NCBI GenBank assembly: GCA_049627345.1
Contig: JBMZXF010000005.1
Coordinates: 2,514-66,513 of the forward strand
Direction: 5' to 3'
DNA: 64,000 bases
Source: Poseidonia sp.
Lineage (GTDB): Archaea; Thermoplasmatota; Poseidoniia; Poseidoniales; Poseidoniaceae
Part shown: in pieces, positions 56,220 through 63,882 of the stretch
How positions within the stretch are numbered: position 1 is the stretch's first letter
Layout: every line of letters begins with the position of its first letter
The notes under the pieces: model-generated
Told to the model about the DNA's origin: nothing
The model's database searches: none
The model's input: the letters and a program-made list of their open reading frames with translations, nothing else
Made by a program: the position numbers and the translations under genes

Positions 56220-57251
56220 ATGACCACCGTTACGCAGCGCTGCGGTGGCCACATCACCCTTCTGTTTACGGTTGACAAATCAACCACCCTGAAACGAAGT
56301 CAAGGCAGCAAGGGTGCGGGGTTTTCCATTCATCATGGCGTGGAAATCACAGGAACCCTCCATCGCAAGAACACCTCCGATGCTGAACCCATGGCGGGGG
56401 AAACGCCTGACCTTCGGGTGAAACCACACGCACCGGAGCCCTCCACCGTGACGGTGAAGGACATGCACGGTGAACACCTTGAACGCGTGGATCTGTACCT
56501 GGATTTCATTGAGGCATGTTATGATGCCACGCTCCTGCGCTCAAACGAACACATCAACATGGAGGTCACCCTTGAGTGCCCGACCAGTCAAGGGTTTGGC
56601 ATGTCGGCCGCCGGCCTCATCGCCGCCGGTCGAGTGATTCACGCCCTCACAGGACGGGGGCGGGCCACGCAATACCTGAAAATCGCGCATCGCATTGAGC
56701 GAGCCCACGGAGCTGGACTCGGCGACGTGCTCGGAGCCTCCGTCGGGGGGGTCGAACTGAGGTTAGCACCTGGTGCACCCGGTTGGCCCGGACACGCCAA
56801 CTCCTTCGAAGCCAACGTACCGGTTCTGCTGGCATGGGACCCGCTCGAAGAGCGACACACGTCCACCTACATCGATGACCCAGCGTGGCAACGGTCCATC
56901 ACCATCGCAGGCGGGGCCGGTGTATCCGCGCTCGCCGCCGGGCCGTGGACACCCGAGCGTTGGGGCGATCTTCTGCTGGCATCGAGAACGTTTGCCACCG
57001 CCTCTGGCATGTTGGAGGAAGAGGAGCGAGCGCGAATTCGCCGTCATGCCCTTGAAGCGGTGCAGGACGGGGGCTGGCAGGCTTCAATGGCGGTCCGTCT
57101 TTGCATGCTCGGCAGTTCGGTGGCTGTGCTCCCCCGCTCGTTGGACGACGGCATCAGCATGGAGGCGTTGGAAGACCTTGCTGAACGCATTCGCCAACGG
57201 GGATTTGCCTGTCTCATCACGAACATTTCGCCGGTCAGTCATCTGGATTGA
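56220..57251 (+). CDS. Pantoate kinase (archaeal CoA pathway, GHMP-kinase fold)
   Basis: CGGHITLLFTV...SQGSKGAGFSIHHGVEI, ECPTSQGFGMSAAGLIAAG (GHMP motif), AHRIERAHGAGLGDVLGASVGGVELRLAPGAPG. Confidence 0.75.
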   Translation: MTTVTQRCGGHITLLFTVDKSTTLKRSQGSKGAGFSIHHGVEITGTLHRKNTSDAEPMAGETPDLRVKPHAPEPSTVTVKDMHGEHLERVDLYLDFIEACYDATLLRSNEHINMEVTLECPTSQGFGMSAAGLIAAGRVIHALTGRGRATQYLKIAHRIERAHGAGLGDVLGASVGGVELRLAPGAPGWPGHANSFEANVPVLLAWDPLEERHTSTYIDDPAWQRSITIAGGAGVSALAAGPWTPERWGDLLLASRTFATASGMLEEEERARIRRHALEAVQDGGWQASMAVRLCMLGSSVAVLPRSLDDGISMEALEDLAERIRQRGFACLITNISPVSHLD

Positions 57252-58281
57252 GCCGGGAGAGGTCGATCGGGCTTGCATCGAGCATGAGCACACCGGGCAA
57301 GAAGAGGTTCTCAGAGAACCCGTGGCGGAACATGATGGCGCCGCTGCCCCATTCCTCGATGTAGCGGTTCATCTGTTTCTTCATCTTCTTTCGCTGGAAC
57401 TCGACGTCCGCCCCGTAGAAGTGTTTGGCGTCGATCCAAGCCACGGGCTGACCGTTGATGTAGACGTGATCCAAAAACAGCAGATCGGGCGTTCGTACGG
57501 GGCGACCGAGCAGTTCGGACTGTTCCTTGACCATCTCGGGCTGACGGCGCAGACGAATTCCCTGCGCTTCAAACCAATCGGCAAGGATGTCCTCAAACAG
57601 GTCGGCTTTGACCTGGGTCTCGGACTGGTCAACGCTTGAGACGCGGTCCACGGCTTCGGCCGCTTCGAATTCCTCTCGCTCTCGCTGCTTCATGGACGAG
57701 GGGGTTCGCAAACTTTCCTTGATGCGCTTCTTCGACCATCCCATCGCTTCGAGAACGACACGGAAAATGTTGACCGGTGGGAAATCATACTTCTTGGAAA
57801 GTTCGACCACCGAGGTTCCCTCTCGGTAGAGCCGGGCAAGCTCGCGGGCCTTTGATTTCAGCCGGTGGTGAGAATACACCGTCTTCTGCTGGAGAAGCGC
57901 GGACCGGAGGGAGAGGGCTTGGTCGAGGTTCATTTGCTCGGATTCAACCTGTGCGGCAATGGCGTCAACCCGCTCATCGCTGAGCCAGCCAAAATCACCG
58001 CGCTTGACCACCAGCGATGCGACGCGCTCCTCGGCCTTCAACGGCACCGGTTGGGGCGTCCACGAGAGGTGAAACGTGCGAGGCGATTCCATGTCCTTGG
58101 GAAACGCCATCGGGAGCGGGGTCCGGTCAAACCGCGATTCAGCATCGGCGTTCATCGAGGCAACGTCGTCTGCAAATCGCTCCATTTGTTGCGAGCGCTT
58201 CGGTCCGCCATAGCGGCGTTTGGACGATGAGCCACGCCGTTGTTGTTGCCGACGATTCGGCCGCCGTGAACCCTCACCCAT
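57235..58281 (-). CDS. CDIN1/C15orf41-like 'TPD-motif' PD-(D/E)XK nuclease with N-terminal HTH region
   Basis: ATG at 58281; the track extension to 58719 overlaps the neighbouring gene start and looks non-coding. HTH-like LARLYREGTSVVELSKKYDFPPVNIFRVVL. Nuclease core GRPVRTPDLLFLDHVYINGQPVAWIDAKHFYGADVEF...YIEEWGSGAIMFRHGFSENL. Confidence 0.75.
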   Translation of the reverse strand: MGEGSRRPNRRQQQRRGSSSKRRYGGPKRSQQMERFADDVASMNADAESRFDRTPLPMAFPKDMESPRTFHLSWTPQPVPLKAEERVASLVVKRGDFGWLSDERVDAIAAQVESEQMNLDQALSLRSALLQQKTVYSHHRLKSKARELARLYREGTSVVELSKKYDFPPVNIFRVVLEAMGWSKKRIKESLRTPSSMKQREREEFEAAEAVDRVSSVDQSETQVKADLFEDILADWFEAQGIRLRRQPEMVKEQSELLGRPVRTPDLLFLDHVYINGQPVAWIDAKHFYGADVEFQRKKMKKQMNRYIEEWGSGAIMFRHGFSENLFLPGVLMLDASPIDLSRLNPDD

Positions 58282-58383
58282 GCATCCCCCTTTCTGACGA
58301 CACTCAATGAAGGCTCCCCCAAAGACGCGTTCACGGAAACACGAGGGGTTCTTATGCAGAGGCACCTTGGTTGATGTGTGAGA

Positions 58384-61056
58384 ATGAGTCGCATCGTGCC
58401 GTTCTTGCTCGTGAGCATGATGCTGCTCGCCCCGTTGTCCATCCCCGGCGGAAACGAAGGTGAGGCAACCCTGCGCCAGGTCACGTCCAGCCACACCTCG
58501 GCCGAAAACGCCAGTGGTTGGTTGGCCAGCGCAGGAGGCGCAAATTACGAGCGCGTCCAAGGCATGGTTCCCTTGCCCAACGGCAGCATGCTTGTGGGCG
58601 GCATGTTTGAACAAAACGTGGAATTCCACGGCGACGTGGTTGGTTTCTCGAGCGATGACTCCAGTTTTGGCATTGATTTTTTCTTGGCATGGATCGATGA
58701 AAACGGGAACTGGACTCAAACCGTCGCCGGTACAAGCGACGGACTTGACGGCATTGACGCCATGGACCGCATGAGCGACGGGACCATCATCGTCGCCGGC
58801 ACGTTCTGTGATATGACCAAGGGCGACGCCTGCAACATGACCCTGGGCGAACTCGCCCCCATCAACAAATCAGCTGACGAACACGAAAACGCCGTCTTCG
58901 TGGCTGGCATGACGTCCACGGGCGAGTGGATGTGGGCAACGAGCTTTTCCAATCCCTACCAGCTCTCCGTCATCGACATGATGGTCGGCCCAAACGACGA
59001 AATTCACCTCGCCCTCCTTCACCGAGATTCGCTGACCTCCGGTGGCGAGTTGGCACCTGGAAGCCTCTCCGAGGATTCCGTGGCCATCATCGTGCTGGAC
59101 AGCGTTGGAGAGCACCGCCACATGCATACGGTCTTCTCCAGCCAGAACCTCGAAAGCACAGGGTCGCTCTGCGCAGACTACAACGGTGAAACCTACTTTG
59201 CGACCTCGTTCCTCGAAATCGTCAGTTTTGGGGAAAATGAACTCACCAGCGAGGGAACCTCGCACGTCGCCGTGGCCAAATACAACTCGGGCGGATGGCT
59301 CTGGGCCGCCGGTGCCGGAGGAACGGGAGACTCCACAGCCACCGATTGCGATGGTCGCCATGAAGGTGGTGTGGCCGTCGTGGGTGATTTCCTCCAAAAC
59401 ATGACGTTTGGCGACATCGAACTCCCGCCCTCGGCATGGGTCGATTTCTACGAAGCCCATCTTTCACCCCAAGGTGAATGGATGCACGCCACCGCCTTCG
59501 GGGGCGGTGCAGCGGACCACGCCGTGGCGATTCATCTCACCGAACAAGGCGATTCGCTCATCTTGGGCAAAACCACAGGGACGCTCGTGCTGGGAGAGTA
59601 CACCCTCACCGATATCGACGGCAAAAACGACGGAAACCATCACGACCTCTTCCTCGGACGGCGACAAGCCAACAGCACGTGGGATTGGGCCATCTCAGCA
59701 GGCGGGCAAGGCGACGATCTCCCCGACACCCTCGCCATGAGTGCAACCGGTTCACCGGTCATCTCCTTCATCGCGAACAACGACGGCGCTTACGGAGCCC
59801 ATTCGTTTGAGCAGCGCGACAATTACGACATGGGCGTTTGGCTGTACGAGACCGACCTGGACCTCGACGGGGTGCTGGACGGGCTCGACAACTGTCCTGG
59901 TCTGGCCAACAACGACCAAGCCAACCTCGACGGCGACGCCTTCGGCGATGTTTGTGACGATGACGTCGATGGGGACAGTGTGCTGGACGTGGACGACGAT
60001 TGCCCGACGGGTGACGTCGGATGGGAAGCCAACACCATCTCCGACCATGACAGCGACGGGTGCCGAGACCTGACGGAAGATTTGGACGACGACGAGGATG
60101 GTATCTTCGACGAATACGACCTCTGTCCCAAGGGACCTGTTGGATGGGTTTCCACCGAGGAGAACGACATCGAGTCGGACGGGTGCTCGGATGAGGACAA
60201 CGACGAGGACGGCTTCGTTGACCAAGCGGATAATTGTCCGGCCGTGGCCAACCCGACCCAAGCCGACCTGGACAACGACGGCATCGGTGATGCTTGCGAC
60301 GCCGACAAAGACGGTGACGGCATCGCCGTTCCCGACGACAACTGCCCCAACGACATCCAGTCGTGGGTCTCCTTCTCTTGGAACGATTACGACAGCGACG
60401 GGTGCCTTGACGAAACCACGGACGAGGACGATGACGACGATTCGGTGTTGGACGTCAACGACGCCTGCCCCATGGGCGAAAAGAACTGGGGTGACAATGC
60501 CTCGGTGTACGACAACGACGGCGACGGGTGCCATGACGACCTCGAGGACGACGACGACGACCAAGACGGCATCAAGGACCCGATGGACCGGTGCCCTCGC
60601 GGCCTGATCGGCCCTGCTCAGCCCGGCCAAGACAACGACGGCGACGGATGCATCGATGCGGTTGAGGACGATGACGACGACCAAGACGGGGTGCTTGACC
60701 CGCTGGACCGCTGCCCGAACACCGACCCCGAGCAAACGGCTTCGCCGAACGGATGCAGTGAATATCAGCTGGACGACGACAACGACGGCGTGGTCAACGC
60801 TTACGACTTCTGTGGGAATTCACCGGTGGACGCTGTGGTTGACGAGCGCGGATGCGAAGCGACCGTTGTCAACCCTGCGGGCGAGAGCGACGACGGTGGC
60901 GTGAGTGCATCAACCCTCATTTTCCTGCTTGCTGGTGCCGTCATCGTGTACGCGATCTACACCAATGCACAACGACCTGGCCCCCCGCTGCCAAAGACCC
61001 AACCCGAATCCATCACGACCCCACCGCCCCGTCCTGCCATGGACGAAGAGGCTTGA
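58384..61056 (+). CDS. Secreted, membrane-anchored protein with beta-propeller-like N-terminal region and thrombospondin type-3-like Ca-binding repeats
   Basis: ATG at 58384 (GTG 58378 is an alternative). Signal peptide SRIVPFLLVSMMLLAPLSIP. Repeated G..D.G.A......DG...V.G.F blocks. More than 10 D-x-D-x-D-G-x-x-D-x-x-D-x-C repeats. TM LIFLLAGAVIVYAIY and a Pro-rich tail. Confidence 0.9.
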   Translation: MSRIVPFLLVSMMLLAPLSIPGGNEGEATLRQVTSSHTSAENASGWLASAGGANYERVQGMVPLPNGSMLVGGMFEQNVEFHGDVVGFSSDDSSFGIDFFLAWIDENGNWTQTVAGTSDGLDGIDAMDRMSDGTIIVAGTFCDMTKGDACNMTLGELAPINKSADEHENAVFVAGMTSTGEWMWATSFSNPYQLSVIDMMVGPNDEIHLALLHRDSLTSGGELAPGSLSEDSVAIIVLDSVGEHRHMHTVFSSQNLESTGSLCADYNGETYFATSFLEIVSFGENELTSEGTSHVAVAKYNSGGWLWAAGAGGTGDSTATDCDGRHEGGVAVVGDFLQNMTFGDIELPPSAWVDFYEAHLSPQGEWMHATAFGGGAADHAVAIHLTEQGDSLILGKTTGTLVLGEYTLTDIDGKNDGNHHDLFLGRRQANSTWDWAISAGGQGDDLPDTLAMSATGSPVISFIANNDGAYGAHSFEQRDNYDMGVWLYETDLDLDGVLDGLDNCPGLANNDQANLDGDAFGDVCDDDVDGDSVLDVDDDCPTGDVGWEANTISDHDSDGCRDLTEDLDDDEDGIFDEYDLCPKGPVGWVSTEENDIESDGCSDEDNDEDGFVDQADNCPAVANPTQADLDNDGIGDACDADKDGDGIAVPDDNCPNDIQSWVSFSWNDYDSDGCLDETTDEDDDDDSVLDVNDACPMGEKNWGDNASVYDNDGDGCHDDLEDDDDDQDGIKDPMDRCPRGLIGPAQPGQDNDGDGCIDAVEDDDDDQDGVLDPLDRCPNTDPEQTASPNGCSEYQLDDDNDGVVNAYDFCGNSPVDAVVDERGCEATVVNPAGESDDGGVSASTLIFLLAGAVIVYAIYTNAQRPGPPLPKTQPESITTPPPRPAMDEEA
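59854..60858 (+). repeat. Coding array of thrombospondin type-3-like (DxDxDGxxDxxDxC) repeats
   Basis: Examples: DLDGVLDGLDNCP, NLDGDAFGDVCD, DVDGDSVLDVDDDCP, DHDSDGCRD, DDDEDGIFDEYDLCP, DNDEDGFVDQADNCP, DLDNDGIGDACD, DKDGDGIAVPDDNCP, DYDSDGCLD, DNDGDGCHDD, DDDQDGIKDPMDRCP, DNDGDGCIDA, DDDQDGVLDPLDRCP, DDDNDGVVNAYDFC. Confidence 0.7.
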
Positions 61057-63882
61057 TCAGACATAGACAACCGCTGGGGAGAGCGGCATGGCTGAGGCGG
61101 CTCGCCCGGTGCCATCGTCCTCGCTTTCGCCGAGCACCACATGGACCGTGCTGAGTTGAAGTTCCTCTGCAATAAAGGCGTGAGCAGCAGCAAGCACCGC
61201 CGCCTCATCGAGGGAAGAAGCGACCACGGCCTTCGAGGCATCGTCCCACTTGAACACTTGAGGCAGCATTTTCTTGCCCCAGAAGCCCATCATCTCACCT
61301 TTCCGCTCACCTTGGGCCAGCGGGAGTTCTTGGAGAACGGGAATGAACTGCTTGGGATGGCCACCGTCCTGAATAAACGCCAACGCTGCTTGAGCCATGC
61401 TTCGCTTCCATGCAGGCGAGACCACGAAGGTGGCTTCGGTCGCTGGCTGGCCCAAGTGACGCTCGGCCACCACGCGAACCTTTCGAGCCTGCTCCAGCAC
61501 GTCTCGGATGTACTGCTCACCGTCGAGCAGGGTTTGCTGGGCTTCCGACAACAAGGCAGGCATGCTCATCGTGCTGCCTGCGACAAGACCGTCGGTGTCG
61601 TCCAGTGCAGCCCACCATTCTTCGGCGAGGTGAGGCGTTGACACCGAGACCATCTGGGCCCACAATGGGAGCCAGCGGCGTGCGACGTCCACATTCTGAC
61701 CGCCCCTCCGGGTGTACCAGTTGATGTCTTTGATGATCTCATAGTGAGAGATTTCAACGGCTCGTCGCAAATCGTAGGCCTCCATGGCTTCAGCGAAATC
61801 ATGCACGCGCTGGGCGAAACGGGCCTCCAGCCAGCCGTCCAAGGGTGAGGCTGTTGCAGACCACCCCAACAGCTGCTCCGGCATGCCACGCATTTGCACC
61901 ATCACGCGATGGTTGGCGTCAAGCGCTGCGTCCGACCAGTCCATGCCGGCCGTCGGGTTGGCTGCAAAGAGAATGAACAGGCGGACGGTGTCGGCGCCGT
62001 AGCGGGCGATCATGTCCTCGGGTGAGACGGTGTTGCCCAGCGACTTGCTCATCTTGGCAGAGCGAGAACCGAGTTCACTCGCGCAATGGGGGCAAGGTTG
62101 GCCCTCATGGGCCGTGGACAAGGTGACGCCGCACGGCTGGCAGAAGGGAGCGGCTTTGTTGACCATGCCCTGGCAGAGCAGTTCGTTGAACGGCTCGTCG
62201 ATGTCAACCAGGCCGAGGTCGCGAAGCGCTTTGGTCATGAAACGGGCGTAGATGAGGTGCATCTGAGCGTGTTCAATACCACCGCAGTAAAAATCGACGT
62301 GCATCCAATGGTTGGCCACCGCCTTGGCAAAGGATTCCTCATCGTTCAAGGCGTCGGTGTAGCGCAGGAAATACCACGATGAATCGATGAACGTGTCCAT
62401 CGTATCCGTTTCTCGTTGAGCTGGTAAACCGCAACGGGGGCAATCCACGTTCAGGAAGGCCTCGGAGGTTGCCAGCGGGTTGCCCTGGCCGAACACCACA
62501 TCGCGAGGCAGTTCAACCGGAAGGTCCTGCTCGGGTACGGGGACGGGGCCGCATTCACCGCAGTGAATCACAGGAATGGGGGTGCCCCAATATCGCTGCC
62601 TGGAGATGAGCCAAGGTCGAATTTTCCAGTTGATGGTTTGGGACCCTCGTCCCGCCTTCTCCAGGGCGTCGCATACCGCTTGTTTCGCTTCCGACCCGTA
62701 GAGGCCGTCAAAACCCTCGAGCGGGCTGTTGACCATCCATCCAAGGTCAACCTCGGCTTTGTCCAAGGGTGCGTCGCCGTCGCCGCCTTCCTTCATCACC
62801 AGCACGCGCTTGATGGGGATGTCGTATTGCTTGGCGAAATCGTGGTCTCGCTCGTCGTGGGCAGGTACAGCCATCACGGCACCAGTTCCATAGGTGGCGA
62901 TGACGAAATTGCCGATCCAAATAGGGACATGTTCACCGGTCAACGGATGAATGGCGTAGCGTCCGGAAAACACACCCTTCTTCTTGTTCATGTTCTTGAT
63001 GCGGTCAAACTCCGCCATCGAAGCGACTTCGTCGTACAGGGCCCGCCAACCTGCTTCGTGCTCGGTTCCTGCGACCAAGGATTCGGCCAGCGGGTGTTCG
63101 GGAGCGAGGGTGACAAAGGTGGAACCGAACAACGTGTCGGGACGGGTGGTGAAGACTTCGATGTCCCGCTCATCGTCCACAATGCCAAAGCGGATGTTCG
63201 CGCCCTCAGAGCGGCCCAGCCAGTCTCGCTGGAGCGATTTGACGTGCTCGGGGAACCCAATCGTGTCAAGCCCGTCCTCAAGTTCTTGGCCGTAGGATGG
63301 GAGGTCAAGGAACCACTGATTCATCTCTTTCTGGGTGACGGGTCCGTTGCAGCGCCAGCAACGACCCGCTTTCACCTGCTCGTTGGCGAGCACGGTGTTG
63401 CACGAATTGCACCAATTCACGGGCGAGAACTCGCGCGTCGCCAAGCCGTTTTCCATGAACTTGGTGAAGAACCACTGGTTCCACTTGTAGTACCGGGGGT
63501 CGTGGCTCTTGAGCGTGCGTCGCCAATCGTACGAGAAGCCCATTCGCTTGATCTGTTCCGTGATGGACGCCATGTTCCGTTCGGTGATGTCGTGGGGGTG
63601 GCCGCCCTCTGAAATCGCGGCGTTCTCTGCGGGCATGCCAAAGGAGTCGAAGCCCATGGGGTAGAGCACATCAAAGCCCATCAGTCGCTTGAATCGAGCC
63701 ACGGCGTCGCCAATGGAATAATTACGAACGTGCCCCATGTGCATTTTTCCCGACGGGTATGGGTACATCTCAAGGCAGTAGAACTTGGGGCGGTCGCTGT
63801 GAATGTCAGCGTGAAACAAGCCTGCTTCGTCCCATCGCTGCTGCCACCCAACTTCGTCCACGGGTTCTGCCTCGGCTGACAT
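61057..63882 (-). CDS. leuS: Leucyl-tRNA synthetase, bacterial type
   Basis: [51 protein letters not shown] closely parallels E. coli LeuS ([20 protein letters not shown]...GWDAFGLPAE). Also [16 protein letters not shown] and KMSKSLGN. Confidence 0.95.
   Translation of the reverse strand: [941 protein letters not shown]

Follow-up and report, generated by a model that had tools for sequence, protein, structure and literature searches.

CDIN1 (C15orf41) is a human disease gene that is mutated in hereditary anaemia. Its product consists of an HTH-containing helical N-domain followed by a nuclease domain (PMC7261414), and the original description tied it to Hjc-type resolvases. The human protein was at first found to be inactive on many DNA and RNA substrates (Shroff 2020; PMC7261414), and has since been described as an RNA 3' exonuclease, with an active site formed by E166, D196, E214 and K216 (Brolih 2026; PMC13463051). 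Indeed, human CDIN1 was inactive on a 20-mer DNA and on the other DNA substrates tested, but cut RNA (PMC13463051). It acts on the 3' ends of RNA in duplexes or hybrids; by itself, it is limited to a single 2-nt cut, Codanin-1 being required for processive activity. The statement in an earlier note on this DNA that the biochemistry of CDIN1 is poorly defined has thus been overtaken, although, given the negative result of Shroff 2020, the RNA-exonuclease activity depends on a single study from 2026. Apart from human CDIN1, no member of the family has given a positive result in an assay, and we found no assay of any archaeal member in the literature searched.

Orthologues have been reported in archaea, with an E-value of 1e-34 between the human and archaeal proteins, while Codanin-1 is confined to eukaryotes (Swickley 2020; PMC7092493). 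In the archaea considered here, the family is already known, since proteins nearly identical to ours are named "TPD domain-containing" or "C15orf41 family protein". A more distant point of comparison is phage T7 endonuclease I, a small, domain-swapped, junction-resolving PD-(D/E)XK dimer, which has no N-domain and cuts DNA junctions.

The gene and its family membership

The window, a stretch of 64,000 nt from the marine Group II archaeon Poseidonia sp. (contig JBMZXF010000005.1), contains one complete gene of this family, whose features are listed in Table 1. The earlier note had placed this ORF exactly, and the three peptides it quoted, RTPDLLFLDHVYINGQPVAWIDAKHFYGADVEF, EEWGSGAIMFRHGFSENL and YREGTSVVELSKKYDFPPVNIFRVVL, were all found in the translation. 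The first of these holds both the TPD motif (residues 264-266) and the DAK triplet (residues 284-286), and YREGTSVVELSKKYDFPPVNIFRVVL corresponds to residues 152-177. The convergent neighbour is a GHMP-kinase ORF (56220-57251, + strand). The overlap of 17 nt between the two genes, also claimed previously, is real; the best NCBIfam matches of the neighbour were to pantoate kinase models, but with a score of 71 bits, far below the cut-off of 380.

Table 1. Features of the TPD-family locus, with positions in the window.
Feature	Coordinates	Strand	Basis
CDIN1/TPD-family CDS, complete (ATG start, 348 aa + stop)	57235..58281	-	ORF and translation; Pfam PF14811, 68.6 bits
3'-end overlap with convergent GHMP (pantoate-kinase-like) gene, 17 nt	57235..57251	.	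ORF coordinates
Conserved element GGGGGAGCCTTCATTGA, -39 to -23 from ATG	58304..58320	-	BRE/TATA-like by inference
Basic tail, residues 1-32, ending in KRRYGGPKR	58186..58281	-	11 K+R versus 1 D+E
Lineage-specific helical extension, residues 33-64 (helices 29-35 and 37-52)	58090..58185	-	Model
Helical N-domain, residues 65-199	57685..58089	-	Common to whole family; homology to proteins of about 260-300 aa from residue ~65; BFVD superposition
HTH-like three-helix unit, residues 145-179, including YREGTSVVELSKKYDFPPVNIFRVVL	57745..57849	-	Model helices
C-terminal PD-(D/E)XK-type nuclease domain, residues 200-348	57238..57684	-	Pfam TPD region; element order
E230 codon, predicted first metal ligand (human E166 equivalent)	57592..57594	-	Invariant; helix 223-239
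T264-P265-D266, TPD motif (D266 = human D196 equivalent)	57484..57492	-	Conservation in relatives
D284-A285-K286, (D/E)-x-K motif (human E214-x-K216 equivalent)	57424..57432	-	Conservation; spacing

Family membership was confirmed: the gene encodes the form that the CDIN1 (C15orf41, Pfam TPD) family takes in Poseidoniales, with its catalytic set intact. In an HMM search, which the earlier note had proposed as a check, the protein matched Pfam TPD (PF14811) well above threshold (E 6.2e-19, 68.6 bits versus a gathering score of 27), residues 200-329 being aligned to profile positions 4-127 of 138; a search of the genome with the TPD profile gave 71 bits. The single protein gave no match in NCBIfam and nothing significant in a PDB sequence search. 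A search of the whole library returned 1201 relatives at E<=0.001, homologues across Poseidoniales being 54-94% identical. Saprolegnia proteins, which are named CDIN1 by UniRef, matched the window protein at E 1e-61. The link back to human CDIN1 is an indirect one, by way of Pfam, these eukaryotic homologues and Swickley 2020.

To describe the catalytic residues, we used an alignment of 93 diverse relatives (23-60% identity). E230, P265, D266, W282 and K286 were invariant, T264 was conserved in at least 90%, and position 284 was always D or E; moreover, the TPD motif was found in essentially all full-length relatives. The distance from D266 to D284 is 18 residues, the same as from D196 to E214 in human CDIN1 (human residues from PMC13463051). 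The claimed resemblance of the C-terminal half to the CDIN1 core, with its TPD motif and D...(D/E)-x-K geometry, is supported by the alignment of the catalytic positions. These positions, invariant or restricted to D/E, indicate selection on catalysis. Overall, the window protein and human CDIN1 share their Pfam family, two-domain plan, catalytic set and spacing; the window protein differs in having D where the human protein has E in the (D/E)xK motif, and in an extra N-terminus of about 64 residues with a tail of charge +10. The Codanin-1/ASF1 context exists only on the human side.

Domains and predicted structure

The AlphaFold (AF2) model of the 348-aa protein was confident (pLDDT 88.6, pTM 0.82). 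Within the nuclease domain, the modelled elements, from the N- to the C-terminal side, were helix 223-239, which carries E230, strand 244-246, an inserted helix 247-258, strands 267-275 and 282-286, helix 294-311 and strand 314-318. D266 lies at the start of strand 267-275, and D284 and K286 both lie in strand 282-286. This corresponds to the helix-strand-strand-strand-helix-strand order of a PD-(D/E)XK core, with Glu on helix 1, Asp on strand 2 and (D/E)xK on strand 3, an assignment that was judged by secondary-structure order only.

In the model, the HTH-like segment that had been noted in the middle of the protein consists of three short helices (145-153, 158-165 and 169-179) within a confident N-domain. 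P169 was near-invariant in the 93 relatives, as were Y152 and R174 in a 13-sequence alignment. In Pfam, this unit matched only DUF742, below threshold (E 0.007).

The first 32 residues are as basic as previously described; they form a lineage-specific tail of about 30 aa that closes with (K/R)RYGG. Residues 1-18 were disordered in the model, whereas pLDDT was 86-98 over residues 21-60. A tail of this kind was present in 49 of the 54 cluster representatives, with a median net charge of +10, and its composition was conserved while its sequence was variable, except that an R-[YF]-G-[GTS] motif was found in most tail-bearing representatives (42 out of 49). In the helical extension that follows, R50 and F51 were invariant within Poseidoniales. 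The extension is beyond the reach of relatives of 255-300 aa, with which alignments begin at about residue 65-140.

When the full-length model was compared with BFVD by Foldseek, it fitted giant-virus proteins over its full length, including proteins that are named TPD or CDAN1-interacting nuclease 1. The best match was A0A8F8SNR0 (E 2e-22, TM 0.71/0.81, 292 columns); others were a TPD protein of Powai lake megavirus (3e-12) and the 'CDAN1-interacting nuclease 1' of a mimivirus (4e-9). Against the PDB, in which no entry for CDIN1 was found, the full-length model returned only noise, with no match below E 0.14. The nuclease domain was also re-predicted in isolation for a second Foldseek search; the resulting list was enriched in PD-(D/E)XK enzymes, of which none reached E<0.001, the best being the nuclease domain of DdmD (E 0.017, probability 0.84). 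With the family profile, the sole sequence matches in the PDB were to phage T7 endonuclease I (3cae, E 0.027 over 48 residues; 1m0d, E 1.5), and Hjc was not matched. This marginal similarity comprises a helix Glu and a 'TPDFLL' strand with the catalytic Asp, as in the TPD family.

Relatives and genomic setting

Other Thermoplasmatota have canonical TPD proteins of about 255-300 aa, a type that is also found in Methanosarcina acetivorans. These proteins carry the same motifs and are encoded by single-copy chromosomal genes, but lack the basic tail. With the window protein they shared 21-29% identity (E 1e-12 to 1e-27), and they formed a separate clade with 100/100 support. The nearest relatives outside Poseidoniales were instead proteins of protists, oomycetes and giant viruses (MMETSP P0127 and P0132; Saprolegnia P0150; GVMAG contigs; mimivirus/megavirus), led by an MMETSP protein with 46.5% identity (E 6e-89), and including the Saprolegnia homologue (35.6% identity, E 1e-61) and those from giant-virus contigs (24-39% identity). 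In the eukaryotic homologues, the short basic tail is replaced by long N-terminal extensions that are unrelated, which brings these proteins to 415-787 aa overall. A profile search of a 5.8-billion-protein set returned Poseidoniales matches only, and in cluster look-ups the only named members were oomycete, MMETSP and viral-metagenome proteins.

On sequence comparison, the Poseidoniales protein thus resembles its counterparts in protists, oomycetes and giant viruses (35-47% identity) far more than those in other Thermoplasmatota (21-29%), which is a modest addition to what is known of the family. Pfam TPD scores ranged from 65 to 80 bits in Poseidoniales and from 45 to 86 bits in the protist, oomycete and giant-virus homologues, versus 125-168 bits in other Thermoplasmatota. 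By these scores the Poseidoniales proteins are a divergent branch, and their substrate preference may therefore differ. A quick tree of 145 rows had nested the eukaryotes within Poseidoniales; this placement was discarded, as the inner branches collapsed in a careful tree of 30 rows, in which AU tests rejected neither Poseidoniales monophyly (p 0.10) nor a single archaeal side (p 0.11). Any exchange among Marine Group II archaea, protists and giant viruses may have run in either direction.

One copy of the gene was found in each of the 41 Poseidoniales genomes searched, and 227 of 401 Thermoplasmatota genomes had a match. The gene stands alone, with one divergent, one convergent and no same-strand neighbour, in conserved synteny. 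In the related loci, which were found with the 13-sequence alignment and were all from Poseidoniaceae, it lies between LeuRS/TSP3 and a GHMP-RpoD-S11-S4-S13 block, and the convergent arrangement with the GHMP gene is kept; in MGIIb, it likewise adjoins LeuRS and GHMP. We looked for an operon partner and rejected all candidates, because neighbours were conserved only within lineages and differed between families (GlmS, adenine deaminase, FolE2, radical SAM, GcvH, and others). Gene context gave no functional clue. Several other Thermoplasmatota families have, next after the TPD gene and in the same orientation, a gene for a Cas4-like PD-(D/E)XK nuclease; a homologue of the latter is present in this genome (E 4.5e-29), but in Poseidoniales it is unlinked to the TPD gene. 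This genome, at 87% completeness, gave no match to Codanin-1_C (PF15296); as the control genomes were all prokaryotic, that search is weakly informative.

Upstream of the gene, GGGGGAG-N-CTTCATTGAGTGTCG was kept in the Poseidonia loci, and the 14 nt preceding the ATG were variable. At an equal distance from the ATG, GGCGAGGATTCAAAGA is found in other Poseidoniaceae. GGGGGAGCCTTCATTGA is a putative BRE/TATA-like promoter element, which would imply a leaderless or short-leader mRNA. We also considered GGGGGA before the ATG as a Shine-Dalgarno sequence, and set this aside since that stretch varies among Poseidonia loci, conservation being found from -39 to -15 instead.

Probable function and alternatives

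The protein is most likely a metal-dependent PD-(D/E)XK nuclease. Our preferred reading, to which as a whole we give a probability of roughly 55%, is that of a CDIN1-family metal-dependent nuclease that trims RNA 3' ends and whose tail and extra helices may fill the role of Codanin-1. It would be an active, divalent-metal-dependent enzyme with a housekeeping job in nucleic-acid metabolism and, by analogy with human CDIN1, would trim RNA from a free 3' end, probably with a preference for duplex RNA or, in RNA:DNA hybrids, for the RNA strand. The N-domain and the nuclease domain would hold the substrate in the cleft that separates them. As no Codanin-1 was found, the tail may replace the surface that Codanin-1 provides; the Arg-rich tail and the extra helices might form a positively charged surface that feeds in the substrate, the part that Codanin-1 plays in humans.

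The nuclease might instead be structure-specific and act on DNA rather than RNA, by resolving Holliday junctions or branched DNA or by processing DNA ends, a reading that we regard as possible but somewhat unlikely. It is favoured by the profile alignment with T7 endonuclease I, which takes in the 'TPDFLL' strand as well as the helix Glu, and by the Foldseek list for the isolated domain, led by the DNA enzymes DdmD, McrC, AgeI, NucS and Hef/XPF; however, each of these links is statistically weak, none having E<0.001, and the same list contains cap-snatching endonucleases, which cut RNA. The link to Hjc-type resolvases with which C15orf41 was first described points the same way, but it was on RNA, not on the DNA substrates tested, that the human protein proved active. 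The Cas4-like gene that follows the TPD gene in several Thermoplasmatota families, and whose homologue is kept here, would also suit an enzyme of DNA, yet the two genes are unlinked in Poseidoniales.

A catalytically silent protein that binds nucleic acids or regulates, either as a scaffold or as an HTH factor whose nuclease fold has degenerated, is very unlikely. The helical N-domain with its HTH-like unit and the basic tail suggest binding, and early work detected no nuclease activity for human C15ORF41; nevertheless, in the 93 relatives the four catalytic positions do not vary, other than between D and E, and activity of the human enzyme has now been reported. We give almost no weight to a recently acquired nuclease of a mobile element or defence system. 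The family does occur in giant viruses, and the Poseidoniales branch clusters with sequences of protists and viruses and not with other archaea, but the gene is single-copy in all 41 genomes of the order and has the same chromosomal position across the Poseidoniaceae loci searched, no integrase, repeat or defence partner was seen nearby, and any transfer must predate the order. A further proposal combines this kinship with the tail: instead of the ancestral CDIN1 of Thermoplasmatota, Poseidoniales would have a distinct CDIN1 of the marine eukaryote and giant-virus type, exchanged with protists and giant viruses, in which the Arg-rich RYGG tail and the extra helices might make the nuclease independent of Codanin-1. 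We consider this combination doubtful.

The earlier note had also suggested that a prokaryotic orthologue could be a tractable model. Poseidoniales are uncultured, so this applies to the recombinant protein only and not to the organism. The argument for a model protein holds for the archaeal family generally, which is already annotated and published. The activity of human CDIN1 was shown only in 2026, and the protein is still without an experimental structure; a compact, Codanin-1-independent archaeal homologue could aid crystallography and help to separate intrinsic catalysis from partner-dependent substrate feeding. The points specific to this lineage are the conserved polybasic tail and the kinship with protist and giant-virus proteins, the latter being of modest significance for gene flow between domains of life in the ocean.

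Family assignment, active site and predicted fold

A search with the Pfam TPD model (PF14811) matched residues 200-329 of the window protein (E = 6.2e-19; 68.6 bits against a gathering score of 27), in agreement with the earlier note, which had proposed an archaeal homologue of human CDIN1 (C15orf41). The assignment is correct, but was already known. PF14811 is present in all of the closest database proteins (54-94% identity), which, where named by NCBI, are called "TPD domain-containing protein" or "C15orf41 family protein" (Candidatus Poseidonia / Poseidoniales), so the proposed annotation already exists; the best locus in the genome collection, from a Poseidoniales MAG, was 99% identical. 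Moreover, C15orf41 orthologues have been reported in Euryarchaeota, with an E-value of 1e-34 between human and archaeal proteins (Swickley et al. 2020, PMC7092493). No NCBIfam model and, by sequence, no PDB chain matched the window protein, and our literature search found no paper characterising an archaeal family member.

All peptides quoted from the protein were found in the translated ORF, with the TPD motif at residues 264-266 and the (D/E)-x-K motif, as D-A-K, at 284-286. An alignment of 93 diverse relatives sharing 23-60% identity with the query showed E230, P265, D266, W282, and K286 to be invariant and residue 284 to be always D or E, with T264, Q303, Y307, G312, and G314 conserved in at least 90%. 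The active-site residues of human CDIN1 are E166, D196, E214, and K216 (Brolih et al. 2026, PMC13463051). Both proteins have the same 18-residue D-to-(D/E) spacing and the same (D/E)-x-K motif; the catalytic residues, on whose alignment the earlier note had staked its assignment, therefore align and are intact.

The AlphaFold2 model, built with an alignment of 54 Poseidoniales sequences, had a pLDDT of 88.6 and a pTM of 0.82, with disorder limited to residues 1-18 and 216-220. Residues 65-199 were modelled as a helical domain, in which three short helices (145-153, 158-165, and 169-179) cover the peptide described as HTH-like. Residues 221-335 showed the PD-(D/E)XK element order: the first helix carries E230, a strand opens with D266, and the strand after it bears D284 and K286, followed by one long helix and two more strands. 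Using Foldseek against BFVD, we obtained full-length matches to CDIN1-family giant-virus proteins, including A0A8F8SNR0 (E = 2e-22, TM 0.71/0.81, 292 columns), a Powai lake megavirus "TPD domain-containing protein" (E = 3e-12), and a mimivirus "CDAN1-interacting nuclease 1" (E = 4e-9). The full model gave nothing significant against the PDB, in keeping with the literature, according to which no structure of CDIN1 has been determined experimentally. The isolated nuclease domain retrieved mostly PD-(D/E)XK enzymes, the best with an E-value of only 0.017; among these were the DdmD nuclease domain, bunyavirus cap-snatching endonucleases, McrC, AgeI, NucS, and Hef/XPF. T7 endonuclease I was reached by the family profile (E = 0.027), with the helix Glu and the "TPDFLL" strand aligned. 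We assign the protein to the PD-(D/E)XK superfamily because of its motifs, its element order, the weak links of the DdmD and T7 endonuclease I type, and the literature.

The gene and its surroundings

Coordinates of the CDIN1-family gene and associated features (window positions unless a contig is named)
Feature	Position	Strand	Remarks
GHMP-kinase gene	56220-57251	+	Convergent with the CDIN1 gene; 17-nt 3' overlap, as described earlier
CDIN1-family gene	57235-58281	-	348-aa ORF, ATG start (ORF listing and translation)
Divergent intergenic region	58282-58377		96 bp; contains two conserved elements (Poseidonia loci)
GGGGGAG-N-CTTCATTGAGTGTCG	58320-58296	-	About -39 to -15 from the CDIN1-gene ATG; conserved among Poseidonia loci
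TGCATAAGAACCC (GGGTTCTTATGCA on plus)	58358-58346	-	About 20-30 nt before the TSP3-repeat gene GTG
TSP3-repeat gene	58378-61056	+	892 aa
Leucyl-tRNA synthetase gene	61057-63882	-	
Cas4-like nuclease homologue	G000 (source genome) contig C17:13430-14506	-	Loci L124/L125; unlinked, on a contig other than that of the CDIN1 gene

The CDIN1 gene belongs to the core of Poseidoniales genomes: PF14811 was single-copy in all 41 sampled. It was found in 227 of the 401 sampled Thermoplasmatota genomes, and Methanosarcina acetivorans was the only control genome to carry it. The order LeuRS, TSP3-repeat protein, CDIN1 gene, and convergent GHMP kinase is kept in nearly all 80 Poseidoniaceae loci, with RpoD-S11-S4-S13 after the GHMP kinase in most; in MGIIb genomes, the gene is also flanked by LeuRS, GHMP, and RpoD.

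In the window, the gene has no same-strand neighbour and diverges from the TSP3 gene. The two intergenic elements look like back-to-back BRE/TATA-type promoters. The one nearer the CDIN1 gene has a counterpart in other genera (GGCGAGGATTCAAAGA) at equal distance from the ATG, and the 14 nt immediately preceding the ATG differ among Poseidonia loci. This element is probably the BRE/TATA-like promoter of a leaderless or short-leader mRNA, a reading that would support the annotated ATG. A longer TTG-initiated frame, up to 58719, was rejected as read-through from upstream; such a frame would run into the divergent neighbour and is without support from relatives.

The convergent neighbour had been called pantoate kinase. 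Two pantoate kinase models were indeed its best NCBIfam matches, but at 71 and 53 bits these fall far under the cut-offs of 380 and 500, so this identity is plausible rather than established; the gene encodes either a very divergent pantoate kinase or another GHMP kinase. The TSP3-repeat protein is rich in thrombospondin type-3 calcium-binding repeats (Pfam TSP_3, E = 8e-22), and the leucyl-tRNA synthetase scored 845 bits with the bacterial-type model TIGR00396 versus 267 with the archaeal TIGR00395.

Outside Poseidoniales, neighbours of the CDIN1 gene vary by family and are mostly metabolic genes. The exception is one group of families, where the TPD gene is directly followed, on its own strand, by a Cas4-like PD-(D/E)XK nuclease. 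The source genome keeps a homologue of this nuclease (E = 4.5e-29, 35% identity, 438-aa frame); Pfam Cas_Cas4 itself had no match there.

Kinship with protist and giant-virus proteins

Sequence comparisons group the Poseidoniales CDIN1 gene with those of marine protists and giant viruses in one branch. The window protein was 46.5% identical to an MMETSP protist transcript product (E = 6e-89), 35.6% to Saprolegnia proteins named CDIN1 by UniRef (E = 1e-61), and 24-39% to proteins of giant-virus MAG contigs (E = 2e-12 to 1e-48), versus 21-29% for other Thermoplasmatota (E = 1e-12 to 1e-27), one family of the same class among them. Pfam scores split these relatives the way identity does, with about 125-168 bits in other Thermoplasmatota, 65-80 in Poseidoniales, 86 in Saprolegnia, 74-79 in MMETSP products, and 45-83 in viral-metagenome members. 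With representatives picked by similarity to the query, none of them from animals, both the 145-row and the 30-row tree grouped the other Thermoplasmatota as one clade, apart from Poseidoniales, eukaryotes, and viruses (99-100% support); AU tests on the 30-row tree rejected neither Poseidoniales monophyly (p = 0.10) nor a single archaeal side (p = 0.11).

The nearest non-Poseidoniales relatives (among P0123-P0175, with P0127 and P0132 from MMETSP and P0150 from Saprolegnia) are long proteins of 415-787 aa, in which the CDIN1 module is C-terminal and no Pfam domain matches the N-terminal 100-470 residues. Eukaryotes account for at least four of them: two come from MMETSP transcripts and two from genes in oomycete genomes. 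Full-length CDIN1-family proteins are encoded on 22 giant-virus contigs (L126-L147, IMG/VR; GVMAG, up to 476 kb); none of these proteins (24-39% identical) was near-identical to the window protein, and nothing in the IMG/VR matches pointed to viruses of Marine Group II archaea carrying a copy.

Alignments with relatives of 255-300 aa begin only at about residue 65, so residues 1-64 are lineage-specific. The basic N-terminus recognised earlier was borne out by 11 Lys+Arg versus 1 Asp+Glu in residues 1-32. Such a tail, variable in sequence and with a net charge of about +10, was present in 49 of the 54 Poseidoniales cluster representatives; for the other five, which are shorter, the start had been called at an internal Met codon instead. 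An R-[YF]-G-[GTS] motif, mostly (K/R)RYGG, closes 42 of the 49 tails. Helices within residues 29-52 were modelled with a pLDDT of 86-98.

Probable activity

The window protein is probably an active metal-dependent nuclease. Human CDIN1 is the sole family member with positive biochemistry; it acts as an RNA 3' exonuclease, is inactive on 20-mer DNA, and the positively charged coiled-coil domain of its partner Codanin-1 passes substrate into its active site (Brolih et al. 2026, PMC13463051). An earlier study had found no activity at all for human C15ORF41 (Shroff 2020). Codanin-1 is confined to eukaryotes (PMC7092493), and its domain was not found in the source genome. By analogy, the archaeal protein may be a stand-alone enzyme trimming RNA or hybrid 3' ends, its basic tail helping to hold the substrate, a reading to which we give a probability of roughly 0.55. 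The weak links to T7 endonuclease I and DdmD, together with the Cas4-like partner of the TPD gene in other lineages, suggest instead a structure-specific DNA nuclease, the main rival, which we regard as rather unlikely. To the family as already described, the present analysis makes two modest additions: the basic N-terminal tail and the affinity to protist and giant-virus members.
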